From contig OZ241332.1 in NCBI GenBank assembly GCA_965200125.1, forward strand, positions 2,187,792 through 2,251,791: 64,000 nt of DNA, written 5' to 3'. Each line of letters begins with the position of its first letter. The first letter of the stretch is position 1. Source of the stretch: an uncultured Candidatus Binatia bacterium. GTDB lineage: Bacteria; Desulfobacterota; Binatia; Bin18. Shown here in pieces: positions 1-52,856 of the stretch. A program made the position numbers and the translations under genes. The notes beneath the pieces were generated by a model that worked only from the letters and a program-made list of their open reading frames with translations, was not told the origin of the DNA and made no database searches.

Positions 1-1323
1 GCAAGGAACGCCGCGACAGGTCGAGAGAAAGCGGAGCAGACTGGCAAACAAGCGGTCGTCATAGGCATGTATTTCATCGAAAACGAACGCCGCCCCGGCA
101 AACGCCGGCCAAGCGAACATCCCCCGCTTTTGATTCTGTGTCAGACCCAGGACGGTATCGACCGTGCAACTGGTAATCGATGTGGACCACGCCTCAAGCG
201 CCTCAATCGTCATAAGGCGATCAGCTTGCTCCTCTTCATCGTCCTTTTCGTCGCCCACATCGAGTAATTCCAAATCTACGGACACGCGGCTGTGCACCAA
301 TTGAGCGTTGAGTGTCGGATCTATCAAATAGTCACGGAATCCTTCAGTCGCCGTTCCCGTCGTTGGGTAGGAGAAGAAAATGCGTTTCCCAGGAGCGCGT
401 GCTGCCGCCCAGATATAAGCCCCCAGCGTTTTCCCGCTCCCACAGCCTGCTTTAGCAAGAACGACCCGCGCCGTTGTCGCCCCCAGCTTTTCCTGAAATG
501 GCCGTGGCTTCGCCCCCCGCAACCGCTGGTCGATGATTTTTTTCAACTCTCTCTGCCCAGGTTTTTTCTGTAAGGCGCGCCGAATCCATCCTGATAATTT
601 CTCTCCCGTTCTCGGTATTGCTGATCCGGCGACATCGGCTGCAATGACGCACGCCTTTGTAATGGCAAGGAACCGACGCTCTTCATCTGTACAGGATTTC
701 CAGAAGCCCTTGGCCTGTAGTTCAATCTCTTTGAGTCGCCGATATGGAGATTTCATTCCAATGAGCTTCCAACTTATATCGGAGAGAACTGGCGGCTCAC
801 CGAGTTCGAGCATTTTCGCTCCGACGGTCAGCGTCCGGTGAAAATCCTGGTGCCCGAGAAAAAGTTTCAGTCGGATTCCTGTCCCATGCCCTGCTTCCCC
901 GGGGGGAAACTTTCGGTGATGTCCCGCGGCAGCCCAAAGAAGAAAAGAAAGGTCTCTGGGCTCCTCCAGAAAATCGGATAGCCATTTCTCCAAGGGCGGC
1001 GTGTCCTGAACAATGAGCAGGGACAGGGCTTCGTGACGAATTGCCTGCGGATGCGAAAGCCTCCCTCTCAGCATCTCTTGGAACTGTGCATTCGCCTTCC
1101 CGAGATCATGACAAAATGCTGAAAGGAGAACAGTTTGGCGAAACCGGTCTTTCCACGTCTTCCCCGACAACCCTACGGCAGACAGTTGGGCGTCCTCGGT
1201 TTCTTCCAGAAGAACCTTGGCCGCGGCCATGACGTTTGCCGTGTGTCCGGGCAACGTCTCGGCTCCCCTGGGTTTCTCCGGGGTGCGACTGCTTTTCGCT
1301 AGTAGCCGATTGAAAATCGTCAT
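1..1323 (-). CDS. cas3: Cas3 HD-nuclease/DExH-helicase, N-terminal ~441 codons; the gene continues past the window start. Start codon ATG at 1323..1321
   Basis: Manual translation of minus strand 1323->1 has no stop. It reads MTIFNRLLAKSSRTPEKPRGAETLPGHTANVMAAAKVLLEE..AFCHDLGKANAQFQ..HEALS..GHHRKF (Cas3 HD motifs), then LAKAGCGSGKTLGAY (Walker A) and FVFDEIHAYDD (Cas3-type motif II). Absent from the ORF track because no stop falls inside the window. The ATG overlaps the cas6 stop (ATGA). Confidence 0.8.
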   Translation of the reverse strand, partial: MTIFNRLLAKSSRTPEKPRGAETLPGHTANVMAAAKVLLEETEDAQLSAVGLSGKTWKDRFRQTVLLSAFCHDLGKANAQFQEMLRGRLSHPQAIRHEALSLLIVQDTPPLEKWLSDFLEEPRDLSFLLWAAAGHHRKFPPGEAGHGTGIRLKLFLGHQDFHRTLTVGAKMLELGEPPVLSDISWKLIGMKSPYRRLKEIELQAKGFWKSCTDEERRFLAITKACVIAADVAGSAIPRTGEKLSGWIRRALQKKPGQRELKKIIDQRLRGAKPRPFQEKLGATTARVVLAKAGCGSGKTLGAYIWAAARAPGKRIFFSYPTTGTATEGFRDYLIDPTLNAQLVHSRVSVDLELLDVGDEKDDEEEQADRLMTIEALEAWSTSITSCTVDTVLGLTQNQKRGMFAWPAFAGAAFVFDEIHAYDDRLFASLLRFLSTCRGVPC

Positions 1324-1910
1324 GCAGACCGTTCCGTGAATGGGACGAATACCCCACAGCCCATTTTCCGTCTCCCACCAAGACCGCGCTCTTGCAGGCG
1401 GACGGAACCCTCAGCCGATAATCCCGTCAGCTTCACTTCAAACCCGACCACCTGCTTGTCCTTGACCCGAAAAGTGCGCCGCTGGCCCAACGAAACCTCG
1501 CAGGAGACGGCGAGGCTTCGCAATTGGCGATGCACGGCTTCGAGAAATCCGTCTGCTTCGAGAAATCCCTTGATCGTGACCAACCGAGCGCGAAGGCGCG
1601 CGACGGATGGAAGCATACGGACTTCCGGCACTCCGACGCTGAGGGGATGTTCGTCCACTTCCAGCCTTTTGCCAGCCAGCTTCAGGTAGGGTCGTATTTC
1701 GTCGTCCGGCAGACGGAGCACCAGACGGGACGAGTCGGCCAATTGGAGCCGTCCGTTTCCGTCGTACATGCCGCGGATCGGCTGAACGCCAATCGCCTTT
1801 GCCTCGTGGATTTCTGGAACGATCCGACTCAGAGCGGCGTACACCGCATAGCCATGATCGACGGGAATGGTGGCCCCGTTCAGACGAAAAGCCAAATCGA
1901 TATACGGCAC
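1320..1910 (-). CDS. cas6: Cas6 endoribonuclease, Cas6e/Cas6f-like (196 aa, GTG start)
   Basis: C-terminal Gly-rich loop GLGGRRKMGCGVFVPF resembles E. coli Cas6e GIGPAKSMGCGLL and Csy4 GLSKGGFVPWF. N-terminal PYIDLAFRL..DHGYAVYAALSRIVP resembles Csy4 YLDI.LRP and CasE DLYQLHQGLWHLFP, with a candidate catalytic His. RBS GGAGAG lies 6 nt upstream of the GTG. Confidence 0.65.
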   Translation of the reverse strand: MPYIDLAFRLNGATIPVDHGYAVYAALSRIVPEIHEAKAIGVQPIRGMYDGNGRLQLADSSRLVLRLPDDEIRPYLKLAGKRLEVDEHPLSVGVPEVRMLPSVARLRARLVTIKGFLEADGFLEAVHRQLRSLAVSCEVSLGQRRTFRVKDKQVVGFEVKLTGLSAEGSVRLQERGLGGRRKMGCGVFVPFTERSA

Positions 1911-2087
1911 GATACTCTCCCGGCGATTCCAGAAAATCCTTCCTACACGAATTCGTTCCTTGCGTCATTCCGTAGGGGAAAATCGCTGAATCGCTTGTCA
2001 CCTGGGGACCCGGATGATGGTGCCCGCGAACAAGGAGCGGCAAGCTCAGAGACCGGGGTGAGGGAGTCGAGACGGGAACCCCCCGCA

Positions 2088-2105
2088 CCCCCCTTATCAG
2101 GGGGG
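2088..2105 (-). terminator. GC hairpin CCCCCC-ttatca-GGGGGG downstream of hldC
   Basis: Perfect 6-bp G/C stem read from the sequence; no clear U-tract. Confidence 0.3.
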
Positions 2106-2141
2106 CAACCGCATGACCCGCAGGTCGGACCCTCACCCTGG

Positions 2142-2162
2142 CCCTCTCCCGGAGGGAGAGGG
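2142..2162 (-). terminator. GC hairpin CCCTCTCCC-gga-GGGAGAGGG immediately after the hldC stop
   Basis: Perfect 9-bp stem with a 3-nt loop, 15 nt past the stop codon. Confidence 0.4.
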
Positions 2163-2175
2163 AATCGGAGGGGGA

Positions 2176-2676
2176 TTACCCCCGTTTCTCTGCGGCGAGG
2201 ATGCGCTCGATGAGACGGCTGGTCGAGAATCCCTCCCGGTAGGGAACGGTCACGACCCGGCCGCCGTACCGTTCGACGACCGACTTGCCGACGATCGCGT
2301 CAGGCTGCCAGTCGCCGCCCTTGACGAGGACGTGCGGCCGGAGGCTGCGGATGAGCGCCAGCGGCGTGTCGTCGTCGAACACGGTGACGTAATCGACGGC
2401 CTCCAGCGCCGCGAGCAGCGTCATGCGGCCCTCCTGGTCCACGATCGGCCGTGACGCCCCCTTCAGCCGGTGAACCGACGCGTCGCCGTTGACCGCGACG
2501 ACCAGCACGTCGCCGCACGTCTTAGCCTGCGTCAGCGTATCGACGTGGCCGGCGTGCAGCAGGTCGAAACAGCCGTTGGTGAAGACGACGGTCTTCCCCC
2601 CGCGCCGGAGCCGGTCCAGCCGTTCGGTCAGCGCTTCGGGCGAGAGGATCTTTCGGAGGGAATCGGGGCGTGGCAT
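2176..2676 (-). CDS. hldC: D-glycero-beta-D-manno-heptose 1-phosphate adenylyltransferase (RfaE domain II / HldC), 166 aa
   Basis: VVFTNGCFDLLHAGHV cytidylyltransferase motif; size fits a stand-alone HldC. Confidence 0.75.
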   Translation of the reverse strand: MPRPDSLRKILSPEALTERLDRLRRGGKTVVFTNGCFDLLHAGHVDTLTQAKTCGDVLVVAVNGDASVHRLKGASRPIVDQEGRMTLLAALEAVDYVTVFDDDTPLALIRSLRPHVLVKGGDWQPDAIVGKSVVERYGGRVVTVPYREGFSTSRLIERILAAEKRG

Positions 2677-2716
2677 GGCGGAGTCGGAGAGCGGTCTTTT
2701 CCCAGGGGGAAGCGGG

Positions 2717-3150
2717 GGTTCGTTTCGCCCTTTCGATCCTTCGACAGGCTCAGGACATCGTAGGCTCGAGGCGCCGCACGCTCAACGAACTTAGGGGCGC
2801 GAAACGAACCCTGGAGAACCACTGTCTTTACAGACCGCGCCCTTCGATGTTTCGACATCCTTCCACATACTCAGCATCCCCTTTCGATAATATCAGCGGC
2901 CCGTCCACCCCCCGAGTTCGTTGAGCCTGTCGAAACGTACCCCGAGGACACCGCCGCCCCCGGCCCTTCGACAGGCTCAGGGACCTTCCACCCCACCCCT
3001 TTGAAGTTCGTTGAGTTTGCGATGTGTTGAGCTTATCGAAACATCGAAACGAACCCCGGGAGACCCTCCCTTGAGATCTCATATCTTCGCCCTTTCGATC
3101 CTTCGACATGCCCGGGACATCGTAGGCCCAAGGCGCCGCACGCTCGGGGC
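2717..3150. repeat. Nest of degenerate direct and inverted repeats in the hldC-lptD intergenic region
   Basis: Two ~58-bp direct copies (2726..2784 and 3088..3145, ~86% identical: CGCCCTTTCGATCCTTCGACA.GC.C.GGACATCGTAGGC.C.AGGCGCCGCACGCTC). Recurring motifs TTCGACAGGCTCA, GCTCAACGAAC and CGAAACGAACC occur in both orientations, e.g. 2916..2937 is the reverse complement of a compact version. Confidence 0.7.
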
Positions 3151-3173
3151 CCGCCACCCTCCACGAACCGGCC

Positions 3174-5393
3174 TCAGAAGGCCGTCTTCCCCGCGGACGC
3201 GAACCCCACCAGCGAGACGGACAGGCTGAACTCCGTCTCGTCCGGGTCGGATCGATCGACTATGCCGAAGTCCAGCGCCCAGCACTTCTGCGGCGAGAAG
3301 AGCCGGAAGAAATAGCGCGAGTTGATGAACGACCGGCTGTTGAGGTCGTACTCCGTGAAATAGGCCAGCGTCAGCGCGTCGTGCACGCGGAGCACGGCGC
3401 GTGCGTCGATCTCCTTGATGAGCCGGTCGGTGATCGTCCGGTACGAAATGCCGAGGCTGGTGCGGCGTTGCAGCGACGCCAGGAGCGGGCTCGTCGCAGG
3501 CAGCGGCCGCGGGTCGCGCAGCGCAGCGTCGAGCCGCGCGGCGATGATGTCGCCCCGGTCGACGTCGACCGTGCTGTCCGCGGCGAGCGAAAAGAACGGG
3601 AGCGGCAGCACGCGCGCGCGGATGTCCACGTCGGAGAAATGCTGGCCGGTCTCGCTCAGGCCGAAGCGTTGCCCGCTCTCTTCCCGCAGCCGGCGGTTCG
3701 TGTCGTACGCCTGGAGGACCGAGACCTGCATCAACTCGCGCACGTACGCCTCGCCTTCCCCCAGCGGGGCGAATTTGCCCAGCAGCCGGTTCGTCACGCC
3801 GTACACGAACAGGCTGCGCCGGTTGATCCGGTCCAGGGTGTCGTACAGCGGCAGGTCGTCCTGCCCGACCTGCGGGACGTACGCGAACGAGACGTGCGGG
3901 TCGAGCACGTGCTGGAGTTTGCGCAGCCGGCCCCAGCCGACGCGGAACACCCGCGACAGGCGCGTGCCCAGTTCGGCCTCGATCTGCACGATTTCCCGGG
4001 TTTGCAGCCGGTCGAGCGGCGTGCCGCCGGGACGCGCCCGTTTTCCCGGCGACCGGGAACTCATCCGATAGACGGTTTCGCGGCCGGTCGCCTTGAGCGT
4101 GCCGTACCCGTAGCCGGCCAGGGAAAACGGCAGGGAGATCCACGGCGCGATGTCGAGCCGTTGCCCGTGGTAGCCGCGGCTCCGAAAGAAATGCCCGCCC
4201 TCGGCATCCAGCCCCACGTCGATGCGGTCGTCCCAGAGCCGGTGGCGGCCCTGAAAACGTATGCGCGGCACGAACTCGAACGCGTCCTGATCCTCGCCCG
4301 GCGGACGCCGGCGGCGGTTGTTCCGCAGATCCTGATAGTAGGTCGCCTCCGCCCGCAGTTGGGCATGCTCCCACGTCTTGACCCCGCCGATCCGCGAATC
4401 GGTGAAGCGCTTCGAGCGGCGGTCGCTACGCTCCAGGGTCGGGTGGAACGCGACGTTCATATCGCGCAGAAAGAAGTCGTCGCTGACCAGGAACAGGTCG
4501 CCGTAGAGTTGGACGTCGGGGGTGAGCGCGTGCCGGTGGCTGCCGACGACGCTCCAGCGGTGGACGGGCGCCGGCGACGAGACCCGTTCCCGGAGTTGCT
4601 CGTTGAAATACGACACCCACAACTGCCCTTCCATGCTTCGGCCGGGCGCGTAACGGTACTCGCCGAGCAGCCCGGCCCGTTCCGAGGTTTCGACGTCCGT
4701 CGTGACCGTCAGATCCTGACTCTTGCTGATCGCCCAATACAGCGGCTGCTCCCACTGGAAGCCGCGCTTGTTGGAAAAGCCGTAGCGCGGCGCCAGCAAG
4801 CCGCTGTGGCGGTCGGTGCGCACCGCCATCGCCCCGTACGGCACGTAGAAGAGCGGCACGTCCCGCACGCGCAGCACGCCGTGGCGCAGCCTGCCGGTGC
4901 CGCCGACGGTGACGTCCAGCGTGTCCGCGGCAATGCTCCAGTCCGCGTCTTCCATGCGGTCGCACTCGCACGTGGTGACGACGCCGTCCGTGACGCGGTA
5001 GCTCTGGCCGTACAGCTTTTGCAGGGTGCGCCCGGCGATCGTGTACTGGCGCCGCGGCAGCCGGATCGTCCCGTTCTCGATGGTGCCGGTCTCGTCCGTC
5101 AATTCCAGACGCAGCCGGTCGGCGCGGACGTCGCCCTGCGGGTCGGCCAGCACGACGTTGCCGCGGGCGTCGAGTGCGTTGCGCGACCGGCGGACGCGGA
5201 CCGTGTCCGCGGTCAAGCGGGCGTCGCCCTTGGTGACGACGACGTTGCCGCGCGCCGAGACCACGTCGCCGTCCTCCTCGTACCCGAGCGCGTCGGCATC
5301 GACCTGCACCCGGTCGTCCTGGGCCCATCCGGCCGCGGTCCACAGCGGCCACACCGCCAGGACGGCGAGCAGAAGAGAAAGACGCGGCGGCAT
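3174..5393 (-). CDS. lptD: LPS-assembly outer-membrane protein LptD (OstA), 739 aa. The track ORF over-extends to 5510
   Basis: Signal peptide MPPRLSLLLAVLAVWPLWTAAGWAQ, then an OstA-like N-terminus and a long beta-barrel. Confidence 0.8.
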   Translation of the reverse strand: MPPRLSLLLAVLAVWPLWTAAGWAQDDRVQVDADALGYEEDGDVVSARGNVVVTKGDARLTADTVRVRRSRNALDARGNVVLADPQGDVRADRLRLELTDETGTIENGTIRLPRRQYTIAGRTLQKLYGQSYRVTDGVVTTCECDRMEDADWSIAADTLDVTVGGTGRLRHGVLRVRDVPLFYVPYGAMAVRTDRHSGLLAPRYGFSNKRGFQWEQPLYWAISKSQDLTVTTDVETSERAGLLGEYRYAPGRSMEGQLWVSYFNEQLRERVSSPAPVHRWSVVGSHRHALTPDVQLYGDLFLVSDDFFLRDMNVAFHPTLERSDRRSKRFTDSRIGGVKTWEHAQLRAEATYYQDLRNNRRRRPPGEDQDAFEFVPRIRFQGRHRLWDDRIDVGLDAEGGHFFRSRGYHGQRLDIAPWISLPFSLAGYGYGTLKATGRETVYRMSSRSPGKRARPGGTPLDRLQTREIVQIEAELGTRLSRVFRVGWGRLRKLQHVLDPHVSFAYVPQVGQDDLPLYDTLDRINRRSLFVYGVTNRLLGKFAPLGEGEAYVRELMQVSVLQAYDTNRRLREESGQRFGLSETGQHFSDVDIRARVLPLPFFSLAADSTVDVDRGDIIAARLDAALRDPRPLPATSPLLASLQRRTSLGISYRTITDRLIKEIDARAVLRVHDALTLAYFTEYDLNSRSFINSRYFFRLFSPQKCWALDFGIVDRSDPDETEFSLSVSLVGFASAGKTAF

Positions 5394-12079: not shown

Positions 12080-12364
12080 CTACTCTCCGGCCGGCTTCCG
12101 CACGGGAACGGTCCGAGATGGCGGTTCGTCGGGACGAGGAGGCCGGCTCGCGGGCGTCACGGTCCGGTAGGCGTCGTTTCCGGGCGGAGTCTGGGCGACC
12201 GGGAGGCGGATCGCCTGGCTGTGCCGAGCCGTTTTGTGGCTCTGAATTTCCTTGCCGAGGTACACGCCCAACCCGAAGACGAACAGAAACCCGATCAGCA
12301 GGCTTGCGACGACCGCACACGCCTGGAACGACGTGACGCGAAAGGCATACGGTCCGAAAGCCAT
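12080..12364 (-). CDS. Hypothetical small single-pass membrane protein (~94 aa) with a Pro-rich C-terminal tail
   Basis: ORF from the internal ATG (MAFGPYAF..) with RBS AAAGGA. The track start at 12439 lies inside the upstream terminator stem. One predicted TM helix (AVVASLLIGFLFVFGLGVYL). No recognisable family. Confidence 0.35.
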   Translation of the reverse strand: MAFGPYAFRVTSFQACAVVASLLIGFLFVFGLGVYLGKEIQSHKTARHSQAIRLPVAQTPPGNDAYRTVTPASRPPRPDEPPSRTVPVRKPAGE

Positions 12365-12448: not shown

Positions 12449-12502
12449 TCCTCACGTTTCCTCGCCGCGGTGGTCCATGCCTCGGCGACCGACTCCGCCT
12501 GC

Positions 12503-12901
12503 CTAGGCACCGTCCGCCTGATCCGGTTCTGCGGGCACCATGTCCGGGCGTTCGGTCCATTCGACGATGGAGACCGGCGCGGCGTCCCCGCGGCGCGGTC
12601 CGAGCTTGAGGACGCGGGTGTAGCCGCCGTTTCGGCCGGCGAACCGCGGGGCCACCTCGTCGAACAGGCGTTGGACCAGTTTTCGGCTGCCGAGATAGGC
12701 GTAGGCCAGACGCCGCGCGTGGACCGAGTCCTTCTTGCCGAGGGTCACCATACGGTCGCCCCAACGCCGCAACTCCTTGGCCTTGGCGTCGGTCGTGCGC
12801 ACCTGCTCGCGCACCAGCAACGCGGTCACCAGGTTGCGCATCAGCGCCTTGCGGTGCGCCGCGGTCCGATTGAGTTTCCGTCCGGCTTTCAGATGTCGCA
12901 T
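12503..12901 (-). CDS. rplQ: 50S ribosomal protein L17
   Basis: [20 protein letters not shown]. Confidence 0.95.
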
Positions 12902-12931: not shown

Positions 12932-13948
12932 TTACGCCGCGGGAGTCCGCGACACGCGCATGCGGTCGAGATCTTCGCGGGGAGGAAAGGCGTCCAGATG
13001 CATGCCGAGTTCGAGCCCCATTTCGTGCAGGATGTCCTTGATCTCGCTGAGCGACTTGCGCCCGAAGTTCTTCGTCTTCAGCAGCTCGGGCTCGGTCTTG
13101 ACGACCAGTTCGCCCACGTAACGCAAGTCCGCGCTTTGCAGACAGTTGGCCGAACGGACGGACAGCGCCAACTCCTCGATAGGCCGGAAGAGGTTCTCGT
13201 TCGCCGCGGGCTGGTCGTCCAGCCCCTGCCGGTCCTCCTGCCCTTCGGCGAATTCGGCCGATCCCGAGAAAATCGCAAGCTGGTCCTGGGCGATCTTGGC
13301 AGCCGCGGCGACCGCGTCCCCCGGCTCGATACTGCCGTCGGTCCACACTTCGAGCGCCAGCCGTTCGTAGTCGGTCCGCTGGCCGACTCGGGCATTGCTG
13401 ACCGTGACGTTGACCTTGCGCACGGGCGAGAACACGGCGTCGAGCGGAATGGTACCGACCGGGTCGTCCTCGGACTTGTGATGCTCCGCAGTGACGTAGC
13501 CGCGGCCTTGGCCGATTTCGACCTCGATGTCCAGGGTGGCACCCTTCCCCAGCTTGGCGATGTGGGTATCCGGGGTGAGAACGTCCACCTGCGGACCAAT
13601 CTTCAGGTCGCCGGCAGTCACGTTCCTGGCGCCCTTGACCGTCAGGTGGGCAGTTTCCGCTTCGCAGTCGCGCAGCCGGAACCGGATTTCCTTCAGGTTG
13701 AGCAGCAGGTCGGTCACGTCCTCGGTCACGCCCGGCAGGGTCGAGAACTCGTGCACCACGTCCTGGATGCGCACCTTGGTGATCGCGGCGCCGGACAGCG
13801 ACGACAGCAGAATGCGTCGCAGGGCGTTGCCGAGCGTCGTGGCGAACCCACGCTCGAACGGCTCGCCGACGAACCGCCCGTAGGTTGAGGTCAACGTTTT
13901 TTCCTCGACGTCGAGCGCCGCGGGTTTGATGAGATCGCTCTCTTGCAT
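12932..13948 (-). CDS. rpoA: RNA polymerase alpha subunit
   Basis: [19 protein letters not shown]. Confidence 0.95.
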
Positions 13949-20314: not shown

Positions 20315-20500
20315 TTACCAACTCGCCTTGGTCATGCCCGGAATCTGGCCGCGCAGGGCATAGGTGCGCAGGCATATCCGGCACATGCCGAACCGCCGGT
20401 AGAAGCCGCGCGCCCGGCCGCACAGCGGGCAGCGGTTGTACTCGCGCACGCGAAATTTGGGCTTTCGCCGCGCTTTCACTCGCAAGGATGTTCGTGCCAT
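20315..20500 (-). CDS. rpsN: 30S ribosomal protein S14, Zn-ribbon type Z (61 aa)
   Basis: [20 protein letters not shown]. Confidence 0.9.
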
Positions 20501-20505
20501 GACTG

Positions 20506-21045
20506 CTAACTCCGAAACGGCATGCCGAGGGCGCGGAGCAACGCGCGCCCCTCCCGGTCGGTTTTTGCCGAAGTGACCAGCGAGACGGTGAATCCCTTGA
20601 TCCGGTCCACTTTGTCCAGGTTGATTTCGGGAAAGATGATGTGCTCGCGGATTCCCAACGAATAATTCCCCCGCCCGTCGAACGACCGGTCGGAGATGCC
20701 GCGGAAGTCCCGCACGCGCGGCAACGCTACGTTGACCAGACGGTCGAAGAACTCGTACATCCGCTCGCCGCGCAGCGTGACCGCACAGCCGATCGTCATA
20801 CCTTCGCGGAGCTTGAAGTTCGCGATGGATTTATGGGCGCGCGTCACGACCGGCTTCTGGCCGGTGATGAGCCCGAGTTCTTCGACGCTGCTTTCGAGTA
20901 ACTTGGCGTTCGTGGCGCCCTCGCCCAATCCCATGTTGACGACGATCTTCGACAGCCGCGGCACCTGCATGGGGTTCGCGTATCCCAGCTCCTGTTCGAG
21001 CGAGGGAAGCACCTTCGAGAAGTACAGATCCTTGATGCGCGCCAT
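20506..21045 (-). CDS. rplE: 50S ribosomal protein L5
   Basis: Conserved L5 sequence. Confidence 0.95.
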
Positions 21046-26817: not shown

Positions 26818-28002
<1,185 letters not shown>

Positions 28003-40504: not shown

Positions 40505-40579
40505 CGGGTCAGGCAGGACTCGAACCTGCAACCCCCGGATTTGGAGTCCGGTGCTCTAGCCAATTCGAGCTACTGACCC
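40505..40579 (-). tRNA. tRNA-Trp (CCA)
   Basis: Cloverleaf folded by hand; anticodon loop CUCCAAA. Confidence 0.9.
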
Positions 40580-40585
40580 ACGAGG

Positions 40586-40738
40586 TCATACCTTGACTTC
40601 CTTGTGGACGGCGTGCGTGCGGCAGACCGGGCAGTACTTGCGCCGCTGCAGTTTGTCGGGTGTGAGCTTCTTGTTCTTGGTCGCGGTATAGTTTTTGTGC
40701 TTGCACTTCTCGCACGAAAGCGCCACGAGGTCTCGCAT
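40586..40738 (-). CDS. rpmG: 50S ribosomal protein L33 (50 aa); not in the ORF track
   Basis: Manual translation MRDLVALSCEKCKHKNYTATKNKKLTPDKLQRRKYCPVCRTHAVHKEVKV. Confidence 0.85.
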   Translation of the reverse strand: MRDLVALSCEKCKHKNYTATKNKKLTPDKLQRRKYCPVCRTHAVHKEVKV

Positions 40739-40795
40739 GTCCGCCTCTCTCTCCGCGTGCTTCCTGAATGCTTCGGTTTCTTCCGCGTAGGCAGA

Positions 40796-41980
<1,185 letters not shown>

Positions 41981-42093
41981 CGTCCTCGCTCCCTTTCGTG
42001 CGCCGCCTTCATATTATGGCGACAAAATGTTTTCTCGACCTGAGATGACGGTCGAACCGCCCGTTCTCCGTTGCGTTCTCGAAAAGAGGGACA

Positions 42094-42166
42094 AGCCCAG
42101 GAGCGGGCTTGAACCGCCGACCTCGTCCTTACCAAGGACGTGCTCTACCTGCTGAGCTACCTGGGC
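42094..42166 (-). tRNA. tRNA-Thr (GGT)
   Basis: Manual fold; anticodon loop UUGGUAA. Confidence 0.85.
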
Positions 42167-42267
42167 GTTGCGTCCGGCTTGCTAGATCATCACGGCTGAA
42201 GAATGACCGGCCTGTCCTCCGTTGCGCCAGCACTCCGTTCGGCGTTGTTTCGAGCCTGAGAAAAGAT

Positions 42268-42343
42268 GGAGCGGGAAACGGGACTCGAACCCGCGACCCC
42301 GAGCTTGGAAGGCTCGCGCTCTAGCCAACTGAGCTATTCCCGC
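42268..42343 (-). tRNA. tRNA-Gly (TCC), CCA encoded
   Basis: Manual fold; anticodon loop CUUCCAA. Confidence 0.85.
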
Positions 42344-42369
42344 CTGAACTCCTCTCTGGACGGAGGACA

Positions 42370-42455
42370 TGGTGGAGAGGGAAGGATTCGAACCTTCGAA
42401 GGCATACGCCGGCAGATTTACAGTCTGCTCCCTTTGGCCGCTCGGGCACCTCTCC
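42370..42455 (-). tRNA. tRNA-Tyr (GTA), long variable arm, CCA encoded
   Basis: Manual fold; anticodon loop CUGUAAA. Confidence 0.85.
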
Positions 42456-42480
42456 GTACGCACGGTTTCCATCTCACGCA

Positions 42481-42552
42481 GGCTGGCGATAGGAGTTGAA
42501 CCTACAACCTACTGATTACAAATCAGTTGCTCTACCGTTGAGCTACGCCAGC
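42481..42552 (-). tRNA. tRNA-Thr (TGT)
   Basis: Manual fold; anticodon loop UUUGUAA. Confidence 0.85.
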
Positions 42553-46754: not shown

Positions 46755-46829
46755 CGGGGCCGACGAGACTCGAACTCGCGACCTCCGGCGTGACAGGCCG
46801 GCGTTCTAAACCAGCTGAACTACGACCCC
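46755..46829 (-). tRNA. tRNA-Asp (GTC)
   Basis: Manual fold; anticodon loop CUGUCAC. Confidence 0.85.
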
Positions 46830-46838
46830 ACCACGGTA

Positions 46839-46910
46839 TGGGCGGTATCCGGTTTGAACGGATGGCCCTCGGCTTGTAAGGCCGATGCTCTTCCACTGAG
46901 CTAACCGCCC
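46839..46910 (-). tRNA. tRNA-Val (TAC)
   Basis: Manual fold; anticodon loop CUUACAA. Confidence 0.85.
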
Positions 46911-52282: not shown

Positions 52283-52367
52283 ATGCGAGAGGGGGGACTT
52301 GAACCCCCACCCGCTCCAAGCGGACTAGATCCTAAGTCTAGCGCGTCTACCAATTTCGCCACTCTCG
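52283..52367 (-). tRNA. tRNA-Leu (TAG), long variable arm
   Basis: Manual fold; anticodon loop CUUAGGA. Confidence 0.85.
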
Positions 52368-52385
52368 CATATCGAAAACGGGAAT

Positions 52386-52458
<73 letters not shown>

Positions 52459-52579
52459 CGCGGGCACCTTATCCAGTATCGGCGGAGGTGGCAACGGGAG
52501 CCGCGACAACGCTGGCAAAAGGACGTGCCAATTGCGGCCAAGAACACTGACGGCAGGAATGAATCGGGAAGGGAGAACG

Positions 52580-52653
52580 GGTGGGTGAAGGGACTCGAAC
52601 CCTCGACTCCTGGGACCACAACCCAGTGCTCTACCAACTGAGCTACACCCACC
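52580..52653 (-). tRNA. tRNA-His (GTG), with encoded G-1 and discriminator C
   Basis: Manual fold; anticodon loop UUGUGGU. Confidence 0.85.
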
Positions 52654-52656
52654 GTA

Positions 52657-52730
<74 letters not shown>

Positions 52731-52782
52731 GCTTAACTATTTGCTGGAGGTTCGGCGCCCTGTCGCCGGCCGTTCCGTCGAA

Positions 52783-52856
52783 TCGGGGCGAGCCGATTTG
52801 AACGGCCGACCCCCTGCTCCCAAGGCAGGTGCGCTACCAGGCTGCGCTACGCCCCG
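52783..52856 (-). tRNA. tRNA-Pro (TGG)
   Basis: Manual fold; anticodon loop CUUGGGA. Confidence 0.85.

Follow-up and report, generated by a model that had tools for sequence, protein, structure and literature searches.

The 497-bp spacer between lptD and hldC in a 64-kb stretch of DNA from an uncultured Candidatus Binatia bacterium (hereafter the window, whose numbering is used throughout) is best explained as a mosaic of a very widespread hairpin repeat. The mosaic resembles repetitive extragenic palindromic (REP) sequences and bacterial interspersed mosaic elements (BIMEs); it was presumably inserted in an ancestor and then scrambled locally, and it is probably co-transcribed with the genes around it. 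We give this reading a probability of about 0.7. The repeat-filled spacer, here called the nest (2677-3173), is a BIME-like cluster of one unit, in which four recognisable copies in alternating orientation are accompanied by half-units and decayed copies. A stem of at least three variable Watson-Crick pairs and the fixed 13-nt loop that it closes, TGAGCYTGTCGAA, make up the unit. It belongs to a family that occurs in many bacterial phyla, mostly outside coding-like open reading frames (ORFs) and often as inverted doublets or tandem runs. As an object the nest is of an ordinary kind, a repeat pile-up; its unit has an unusual signature for which we found no description.

The nest is built from copies of one hairpin unit

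The nest makes up the complete lptD-hldC intergenic spacer. Exact 11-mers formed 31 direct and 38 inverted pairs within it, compared with means of 0.11 and 0.51 in 1000 dinucleotide-preserving shuffles. When the whole 64 kb was scanned in 497-nt windows with a step of 250 nt, the 11-mer-pair score was highest for those overlapping the nest. Chance falls far short of explaining so many repeats, and the repeat nest noticed in the preliminary description, which had been made from the sequence alone, is present. That description had given two direct copies of about 58 bp with about 86% identity. Both copies exist, with a length of 60 nt and an identity of 92% instead (copy A, 2724-2783, plus strand, direct-repeat families D1 and D3; copy B, 3086-3145, plus strand). 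Its motifs recurring in both orientations were also recovered: TTCGACAGGCTCA is exact at 2740 (+), 2967 (+) and 2922 (−), with a two-mismatch copy at 3028 (−), and CGAAACGAACC is exact at 2800 (+), 3045 (+) and 2717 (−), which makes three exact occurrences on two strands for each. The compact palindrome GTTCGTTGAGCCTGTCGAAACG lies at 2916-2937 as described. Further copies of the nest repeats elsewhere in the window were not found with blastn-short.

All of the motifs first noticed are pieces of a single unit, in which a short stem closes the 13-nt loop TGAGCYTGTCGAA. A covariance model, R1, was built from an alignment (A2) of 120 units, all from other organisms, of which 100 were chosen without regard to their flanks. 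Applied to the window, R1 returned four matches, all of them in the nest and on alternating strands; the next-best match in the 64 kb had an E-value of 4. The highest score belonged to an intact unit at 2959-2987 (−; 31.3 bits, E = 1.3e-5) with the closing pairs CCC/GGG and the loop TGAGCCTGTCGAA. The intact unit at 2914-2942 (+; 31.1 bits, E = 1.4e-5) has the same loop on the stem GTTCGT/ACGTAC with one mismatch; it corresponds to the compact palindromic version of the preliminary description, and a GTTCGT-loop-ACGAAC unit is also present in metagenome contigs. A third intact unit, with the closing pairs TCC/GGA, is located within copy A of the 60-nt repeat at 2732-2760 (−; 28.4 bits, E = 7.9e-5). 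The fourth match, at 3020-3048 (+; 18.1 bits, E = 0.049), is a degenerate unit with the loop TGAGCTTATCGAA, which carries one mismatch. Copy B of the repeat contains a decayed loop at 3100-3112 (−), CGGGCATGTCGAA, with three mismatches and the closing pairs TCC/GGA; it was read from the sequence and the repeat map and was not reported by R1. Half-units are found in the nest as well, CGAAACGAACC being the 3' half and GCTCAACGAAC the 5' half.

Units and half-units are joined into larger elements. An inverted doublet at 2909-2990 (−; inverted repeat I4) consists of CCC-loop-GGG, a 26-nt spacer and CGT-reverse loop-ACG. The loops of its two units are complementary, and the doublet can be folded as one long hairpin (RNA fold −42.9 kcal/mol, z = −3.28; none of 200 shuffles was as good). 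In a composite element at 2713-2815 (−; inverted repeat I6), the closing arms are exact inverted repeats of 13 nt at 2716-2728 and 2799-2811, namely the half-units CGAAACGAACCC; the element folds at −40.8 kcal/mol (z = −2.42). A shortened copy of the composite, GGGGTTCGTTTCG...CTCAACGAACTT, is located at 3000-3062 (−; inverted repeats I1 and I2; −16.2 kcal/mol, z = −2.94).

ORFs of 76-109 amino acids cross the nest at 2628-2858 (−), 2670-2924 (+) and 2828-3157 (−). They are very likely spurious because they are built of repeat units, and they could be mis-annotated as hypothetical proteins. Spurious small ORFs from such units are common in annotation, and we take unit sequences to be the source of the common spurious peptides PFDKLRANG, VSLSNHE and LSLSKG in annotated genomes.

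A fixed loop is closed by a covarying stem

Three Watson-Crick pairs directly closing the 13-mer were formed in 105 of the 136 unique copies that had not been selected by their flanks, against a mean of 12.5 and a maximum of 25 in 1000 shuffles. The closing triplets were GGC/GCC (23 copies), TGG/CCA (18), CAC/GTG (15), TGC/GCA (14), TCC/GGA (7), GGT/ACC (6) and others. Within alignment A2 the three closing pairs were formed in 109-112 of the 120 sequences and included CG, GC, UA and AU types, with a covariation score of 0.76; shuffles scored 0.22 and slid controls 0.11-0.21. The closing pairs are almost purely Watson-Crick. Pairing fades past the fourth pair, and covariation is limited to the first 3-4 closing pairs. 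Because the closing pairs covary while the loop stays fixed, the family is marked by conservation of the loop and variation of the stem, whereas classical REPs show the opposite.

Two longer structures were considered and rejected. A long variable stem of pairs 4-10 around CCC-loop-GGG paired no better than shuffled sequence (3.03 vs 3.00), and 45 variant positions were only weakly consistent with a stem extended through tandem G.A pairs to a CYUGU pentaloop. By inspection, the consensus was unlike the hammerhead, integron attC, parS, boxA, the LexA box and the Tn3 inverted repeat.

To our knowledge, the element has not been named in any paper. Neither a name nor the printed core of the family was found in the searchable literature, where core and peptide strings gave unrelated primers, and translated repeats had no match in Pfam. 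The core is absent from a survey of REPs including its supplements (PMC3733652) and from PMC6006769.

The unit family is spread over many phyla

The counts obtained for the family in viral, genome and metagenome collections are lower bounds. The 17-mer CTGAGCYTGTCGAAGGG was found in at least 120 contigs of the viral collection and in at least 118 stretches of a collection with one genome per species. Among the matches listed, the phyla named are Bacteroidota, Cyanobacteria, Actinomycetota, Chloroflexota, Nitrospirota, NC10, Planctomycetota and Acidobacteriota, and further groups are Armatimonadota, Myxococcota, Latescibacterota, Zixibacteria and the Alpha-, Beta- and Gammaproteobacteria. The lineages Staskawiczbacteria, Saccharibacteria and Peregrinibacteria of the candidate phyla radiation are also among them, and the locus GC of the genome matches listed ranges from 0.31 to 0.74. 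A 19-mer of the compact unit of the window had at least 120 matches in metagenomes and none in the viral collection. The canonical element had no match in a phage collection, and the nest gave one trivial 43-nt match in a plasmid collection.

Counts of this kind are insufficient by themselves, and enrichment of the family is concluded because of the context of the matches, namely paired cores and a location outside ORFs. A second core with at most one mismatch was present within 150 nt at 62 of the 118 genome loci listed, compared with 3 of 797 background stretches. In the genome set 23% of the units lay in coding-like ORFs, compared with 79% of random positions. An extended arm, CCGTTCGCC-CTGAGC..., is common to many matches. 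About a third to half of the units have a nearby partner, often inverted, and the two-unit layout of CCC-loop-GGG, spacer and reversed GTTCGT-type unit was seen in 32 of the 120 metagenome matches listed. Sphingobium megaplasmids carry an 82-nt palindromic version in up to 20 places per record of about 1 Mb. Two Sphingobium copies that were inspected fill the short spacer between co-directional genes, starting 16-28 nt past the upstream stop codon, which is the same placement as that of the nest in the window.

At four loci (L084, L097, L135 and L190) units stand in tandem runs, head to tail and without spacers, at a period of about 21-33 nt (3-4 copies of ggtCCCTGAGCTTGTCGAAGGGc, for instance); therefore the unit also expands as a minisatellite. 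Marine contigs hold the two-unit doublet as internal cargo of a MITE (miniature inverted-repeat transposable element) of about 140 nt, with 18-nt terminal inverted repeats AATGGYACTTACTTAAGC ... GCTTAAGTAAGTGCCATT. This arrangement was seen at L250, L279, L307, L313 and about 15 similar loci, on contigs of 40-50% GC, several of which come from TARA ocean samples.

The nest is specific to the lineage and has been remodelled

By its LptD homologues, the source organism falls among Binatia-like 'Deltaproteobacteria' metagenome-assembled genomes. In L001 (99% LptD identity) the nest is kept and is 98.5% identical. In L002, a 4.18-Mb genome with 90% LptD identity, the spacer measures 691 bp and holds the same motifs in a different arrangement. 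The spacers of L003 (69%), L004 (64%), and L005 and L006 (both 63%) are 32-60 bp long, with the gene order of a murein-ligase-like gene, lptD, hldC and rpmB/relA kept. No nest motifs were found in 22 kb of each of these four loci, and R1 gave nothing better than E = 0.9 in them. Within 22 kb of L002, R1 gave 10 matches and one weak match (E = 2) at three intergenic sites, which are the nest, a position just after hldC and a position just before rpmB.

The nests of the window and L002 consist of collinear blocks of about 90% identity with unit-sized insertions, deletions and duplications between them. Window positions 2999-2930 align with L002 positions 12453-12521 and with their duplicate at 12296-12361, and window positions 2867-2780 align with 12760-12847. 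The hldC-adjacent element of L002 (12817-12863) has the structure GGTTCGTTTCG-ACAAGCTCA-ACGAACTTAGGGG-GGCGAAACGAACC. Its version in the window, the composite at 2713-2815, includes two additional segments with short direct repeats on either side, TTTCG...TTCG for one and GCTCA...GCTCA for the other. The nest is lineage-specific: it is absent from the orthologous spacers at 69% LptD identity or less, and it has since been remodelled by duplication, insertion and deletion.

Comparison with known repeat systems

REPs have a conserved stem and a GTAG or CGTC tag, with loops of 4-5 nt in the CGTC families (PMC3733652). The nest resembles the REPs and BIMEs of Enterobacteria and Pseudomonas in several respects. 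These are short extragenic palindromic units of 20-40 nt, and the units described here measure about 19-29 nt. They are clustered in alternating orientation with short linkers (−, +, −, + in the nest) and lie mostly in the spacers of co-directional or convergent genes, a short way downstream of ORFs, as in the window, at the L002 sites and in Sphingobium. Inverted dimers are frequent, and the units are able to fold in read-through mRNA. The differences are these: the REP stem is conserved, whereas in the units described here it is variable and the 13-nt loop is the fixed part; the units follow no GTAG rule; and REP families are largely lineage-specific, whereas the core of this family is nearly identical across many phyla. 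No cognate REP-associated tyrosine transposase (RAYT; TnpA_REP), the gene for which is usually flanked by REPs, was found in the 3-kb flanks of about 240 copies, a search that can easily miss a single-copy gene. Many units have a 5' NYTCR-like flank (GTTCG, TGTCA, CCTCA) with only a loose likeness to two variants of the CGTC tag, TGTC and CCTC.

REPINs are inverted REP doublets, described as being mostly inherited vertically, as having a single-copy RAYT for a partner and as occurring in large numbers per genome (PMC3116915). The doublet at 2909-2990 is of the same design, with two inverted units, a short spacer and one long hairpin, and elsewhere about a third to half of the family have a second unit no more than 150 nt away. 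Unlike REPINs, the units form one cluster in 64 kb and have a cross-phylum distribution, with no RAYT in evidence. The hairpins recognised by HUH endonucleases, at rolling-circle origins and at the ends of IS200/IS605 elements, offer only an analogy, in that the invariant loop of the units on a variable stem with almost only Watson-Crick closing pairs is reminiscent of a nick site presented by a hairpin; no HUH gene is linked to the units and no cleavage site is known.

Weighing of the explanations

The classification as a REP- or MITE-like cluster in the preliminary description was partly right. Its motifs are indeed fragments of a repeat unit that is found at other L002 loci and in many unrelated genomes, and the closer likeness is to REPs and BIMEs. 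Several observations weigh against our preferred reading of the nest as a REP/BIME-like mosaic. Only one cluster is present within the window, which covers 64 kb of the source genome, whereas REPs occur as many dispersed copies in a genome. About half of the metagenome matches to the 19-mer were judged by eye to be chance matches in coding sequence for 'FDKLNE', the rest being units. Taken singly, the units are of marginal thermodynamic stability (z about 0). The comparison of wobble pairs on the loop strand with A.C pairs, which would be wobble on the opposite strand (33 vs 19, p = 0.07), does not separate action at the DNA level from action at the RNA level, and the orientation of units relative to the nearest upstream gene end (19 vs 29, with crude ORF calls) was not significant. 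Finally, the 3-kb surroundings of about 240 copies share no transposase-like ORF family, although a single-copy gene is easily missed in such a search; the ORFs that do recur there are phage structural genes and common housekeeping families.

The alternative that survives best, which we nevertheless consider improbable, is that the nest consists of nested MITEs, that is, non-autonomous transposons with terminal inverted repeats that were moved by a transposase encoded by an insertion sequence (IS). The ends of the parent IS would then be expected to match GGGTTCGTTTCGC or the unit. Bacterial MITEs such as Correia/NEMIS, ERIC, Nezha and Chunjie are, like the nest elements, small, non-coding and hairpin-forming; they include nested and decayed copies and can be inserted between the genes of an operon without destroying it. 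The exact 13-nt inverted repeats that lie 70 nt apart in the composite element have the appearance of MITE ends, the comparison with L002 reveals insert-like segments flanked by short direct repeats (TGAGC, CGAA), and a genuine MITE with 18-nt ends carries the doublet in the marine contigs. The supposed 13-nt ends, however, are themselves half-units of the hairpin, and inspection disclosed no target-site duplication around the composite element. The nest as a whole lacks defined terminal inverted repeats that have target-site duplications, and it has no known parent IS. Near-identical copies are absent from the rest of the window, and the flanks of the family members hold no recurring transposase. 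Conservation is centred on the internal loop while the ends are variable, which is the reverse of what is expected of a MITE.

A structured non-coding RNA gene is a much less probable reading of the nest, as is a riboswitch-like leader. RNA folding, which had been suggested in the preliminary description, gave −225 kcal/mol for the whole nest on the gene-sense strand (z = −3.3), and on either strand the fold of the nest was significantly more stable than that of shuffled sequence (z = −4.1 and −3.3). The inverted repeat units account for this good fold. In Rfam nothing in the nest reached the gathering score, and at E-values up to 10 three chance-level matches of 12-18 bits were obtained where the gathering scores are 38-95; canonical copies from other genomes gave no credible match at gathering or permissive thresholds either. 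The nest contains no terminator-like site, its sole promoter-like match is weak and on the opposite strand, and it is not conserved in relatives.

A locus-specific cis-regulatory region, in the form of an operator array or a leader for hldC and the lipopolysaccharide (LPS) genes, is very unlikely. The position directly upstream of hldC would suit such a region, the repeated motifs could be binding sites, and the fixed loop suggests recognition by some factor. This explanation was largely refuted by L003-L006, in which the gene order is the same and the nest is absent; because these relatives have spacers of 32-60 bp without the motifs, a conserved LPS regulatory region is not supported, and the link to the LPS neighbourhood made in the preliminary description does not hold. 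Motifs confined to this locus would, according to that description, have pointed to local regulation, whereas the units occur at unrelated loci of L002 and in many unrelated genomes, and their arrangement is very different between species with 90% LptD identity.

The preliminary description had also noted cas genes about 800 bp away, and although cas6/cmx6 is indeed 767 bp from the nest and units flank an island with clustered regularly interspaced short palindromic repeats (CRISPR) and cas genes in L002, we hold it barely conceivable that the nest is a CRISPR-related remnant, either a degenerate array or a leader belonging to the type I cas locus next to it: a CRISPR array has regular direct repeats of 25-40 nt and unique spacers of similar length, whereas the units of the nest are in both orientations with irregular spacing and no repeat-spacer periodicity, hldC separates the nest from the cas genes, the CRISPR repeat of L002 was not seen in the nest by inspection, R1 found no unit inside the L002 array, and the family occurs in many contexts without an apparent cas link, such as Sphingobium metabolic loci.

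Proposed origin and effect of the nest

The gene for D-glycero-beta-D-manno-heptose 1-phosphate adenylyltransferase, hldC (2176-2676, minus strand), is located downstream of the nest on the coding strand; its product scored 201 bits against TIGR02199 (rfaE domain II), for which the cut-off is 181.5. Upstream lies lptD (3174-5393, minus strand; Pfam LptD, LptD_2 and LptD_N), the start of which was set according to 739-aa homologues. Simple scans of the nest detected neither a promoter-like site on the gene strand nor a terminator-like site. The nest is most likely transcribed within one lptD-hldC mRNA, because the two genes are co-directional on the minus strand and nearly contiguous in relatives and because no promoter or terminator of the gene strand is seen in the nest. 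The sole sigma-70-like promoter match in 1900-3400 is at 2862-2891 (+; TCCACA, 18 nt, GATAAT; 9/12); it lies inside the nest, antisense to lptD and hldC, and is weak.

We propose that the common ancestor of the window and L002 lineages acquired one unit, or a few, in its lptD-hldC spacer. Afterwards the cluster would have grown and become scrambled through local duplication as well as through indels between the many short microhomologies that contain TCGAA or GCTCA. REP elements in Escherichia coli operons act as barriers to 3' exonucleases or as partial terminators. The long hairpins of the nest could have either effect in the mRNA and so uncouple the levels of lptD and hldC; they would protect the 3' end of lptD and lower or uncouple the expression of hldC. 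The repeat invasion expanded a compact operon junction 10- to 20-fold, and it may have uncoupled lptD from hldC. With this reading the interpretation of the region as an LPS or CRISPR regulatory element is removed.

An array of protein-binding sites had been offered in the preliminary description as another reading of the motifs. The units may serve as such sites, as a fixed loop on a variable stem would fit, and in that case the binding would be generic to the family and not specific to the locus. The signature is unusual, with an invariant 13-nt loop and freely covarying closing pairs in many phyla and in contigs catalogued as viral. A loop conserved so widely implies a shared recognition partner. 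Speculatively, the loop might be recognised by a protein specific for single strands, for example a HUH-type nuclease that spreads the units. Only tentatively, and with the odds against it, do we extend this idea to the possibility that the TGAGCYTGTCGAA hairpin is an undescribed functional module across phyla, in which a conserved protein that binds or cuts single strands keeps the 13 nt fixed and either spreads the module or is recruited by it; the nest would then be a local graveyard and nursery of the module. The partner, if found, would explain the source of the spurious small ORFs and could reveal a new mechanism of mobilisation or RNA control.

The cas neighbourhood and other features of the window

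The cas genes beside hldC are cas6/cmx6 of type I-MYXAN, which ends at 1910, and cas3. They lie in a block of low GC (0.51-0.61, window 1-2000), and no CRISPR array was found in the 64-kb window. The same place in L002 (13400-20660) is occupied by a different island with an HD protein, a Cas9-like protein, Cas2 and an array of four repeats. There is no CRISPR-Cas island in L003-L006, where hldC is followed directly by rpmB or relA. In this lineage the hldC-rpmB junction appears to be a hot spot for insertions, because islands of different types are present there in the window and L002 and none is present in L003-L006. Units were observed at both borders of the L002 island, at 13539-13622 and 20527-20555 (R1 scores of 19-30.5 bits), and they may mark recombination junctions. 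The co-occurrence of units and islands comes from effectively a single lineage and is an observation, not a functional link; the proximity of the nest to the cas genes looks coincidental.

A second GC-rich palindromic motif, CCCTCACCCTGGCCCTCTCCCGGAGGGAGAGGG, was found with its relatives between hldC and the cas genes of the window (2030-2183) and at the borders of the L002 island (13425-13455 and 20405-20460). It is probably another interspersed repeat family. A terminator-like hairpin, GGGGGATTACCCCC, with a T-rich tail is located at 2170-2183 (+).

Two features lie farther from the nest. A direct repeat of 300 nt with 100% identity is present at 26819-27118 and 40797-41096. The second copy lies at the 3' end of a gene for EF-Tu, identified from the translation of ORF 40796-41980, beside a tRNA cluster, and the repeat is likely to represent a duplicated tuf gene whose copies are presumably kept identical by gene conversion. 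The window also contains 12 tRNA genes, identified with the Rfam tRNA model, which are arranged in three clusters at 40505-42552, 46755-46910 and 52284-52856, all on the minus strand.

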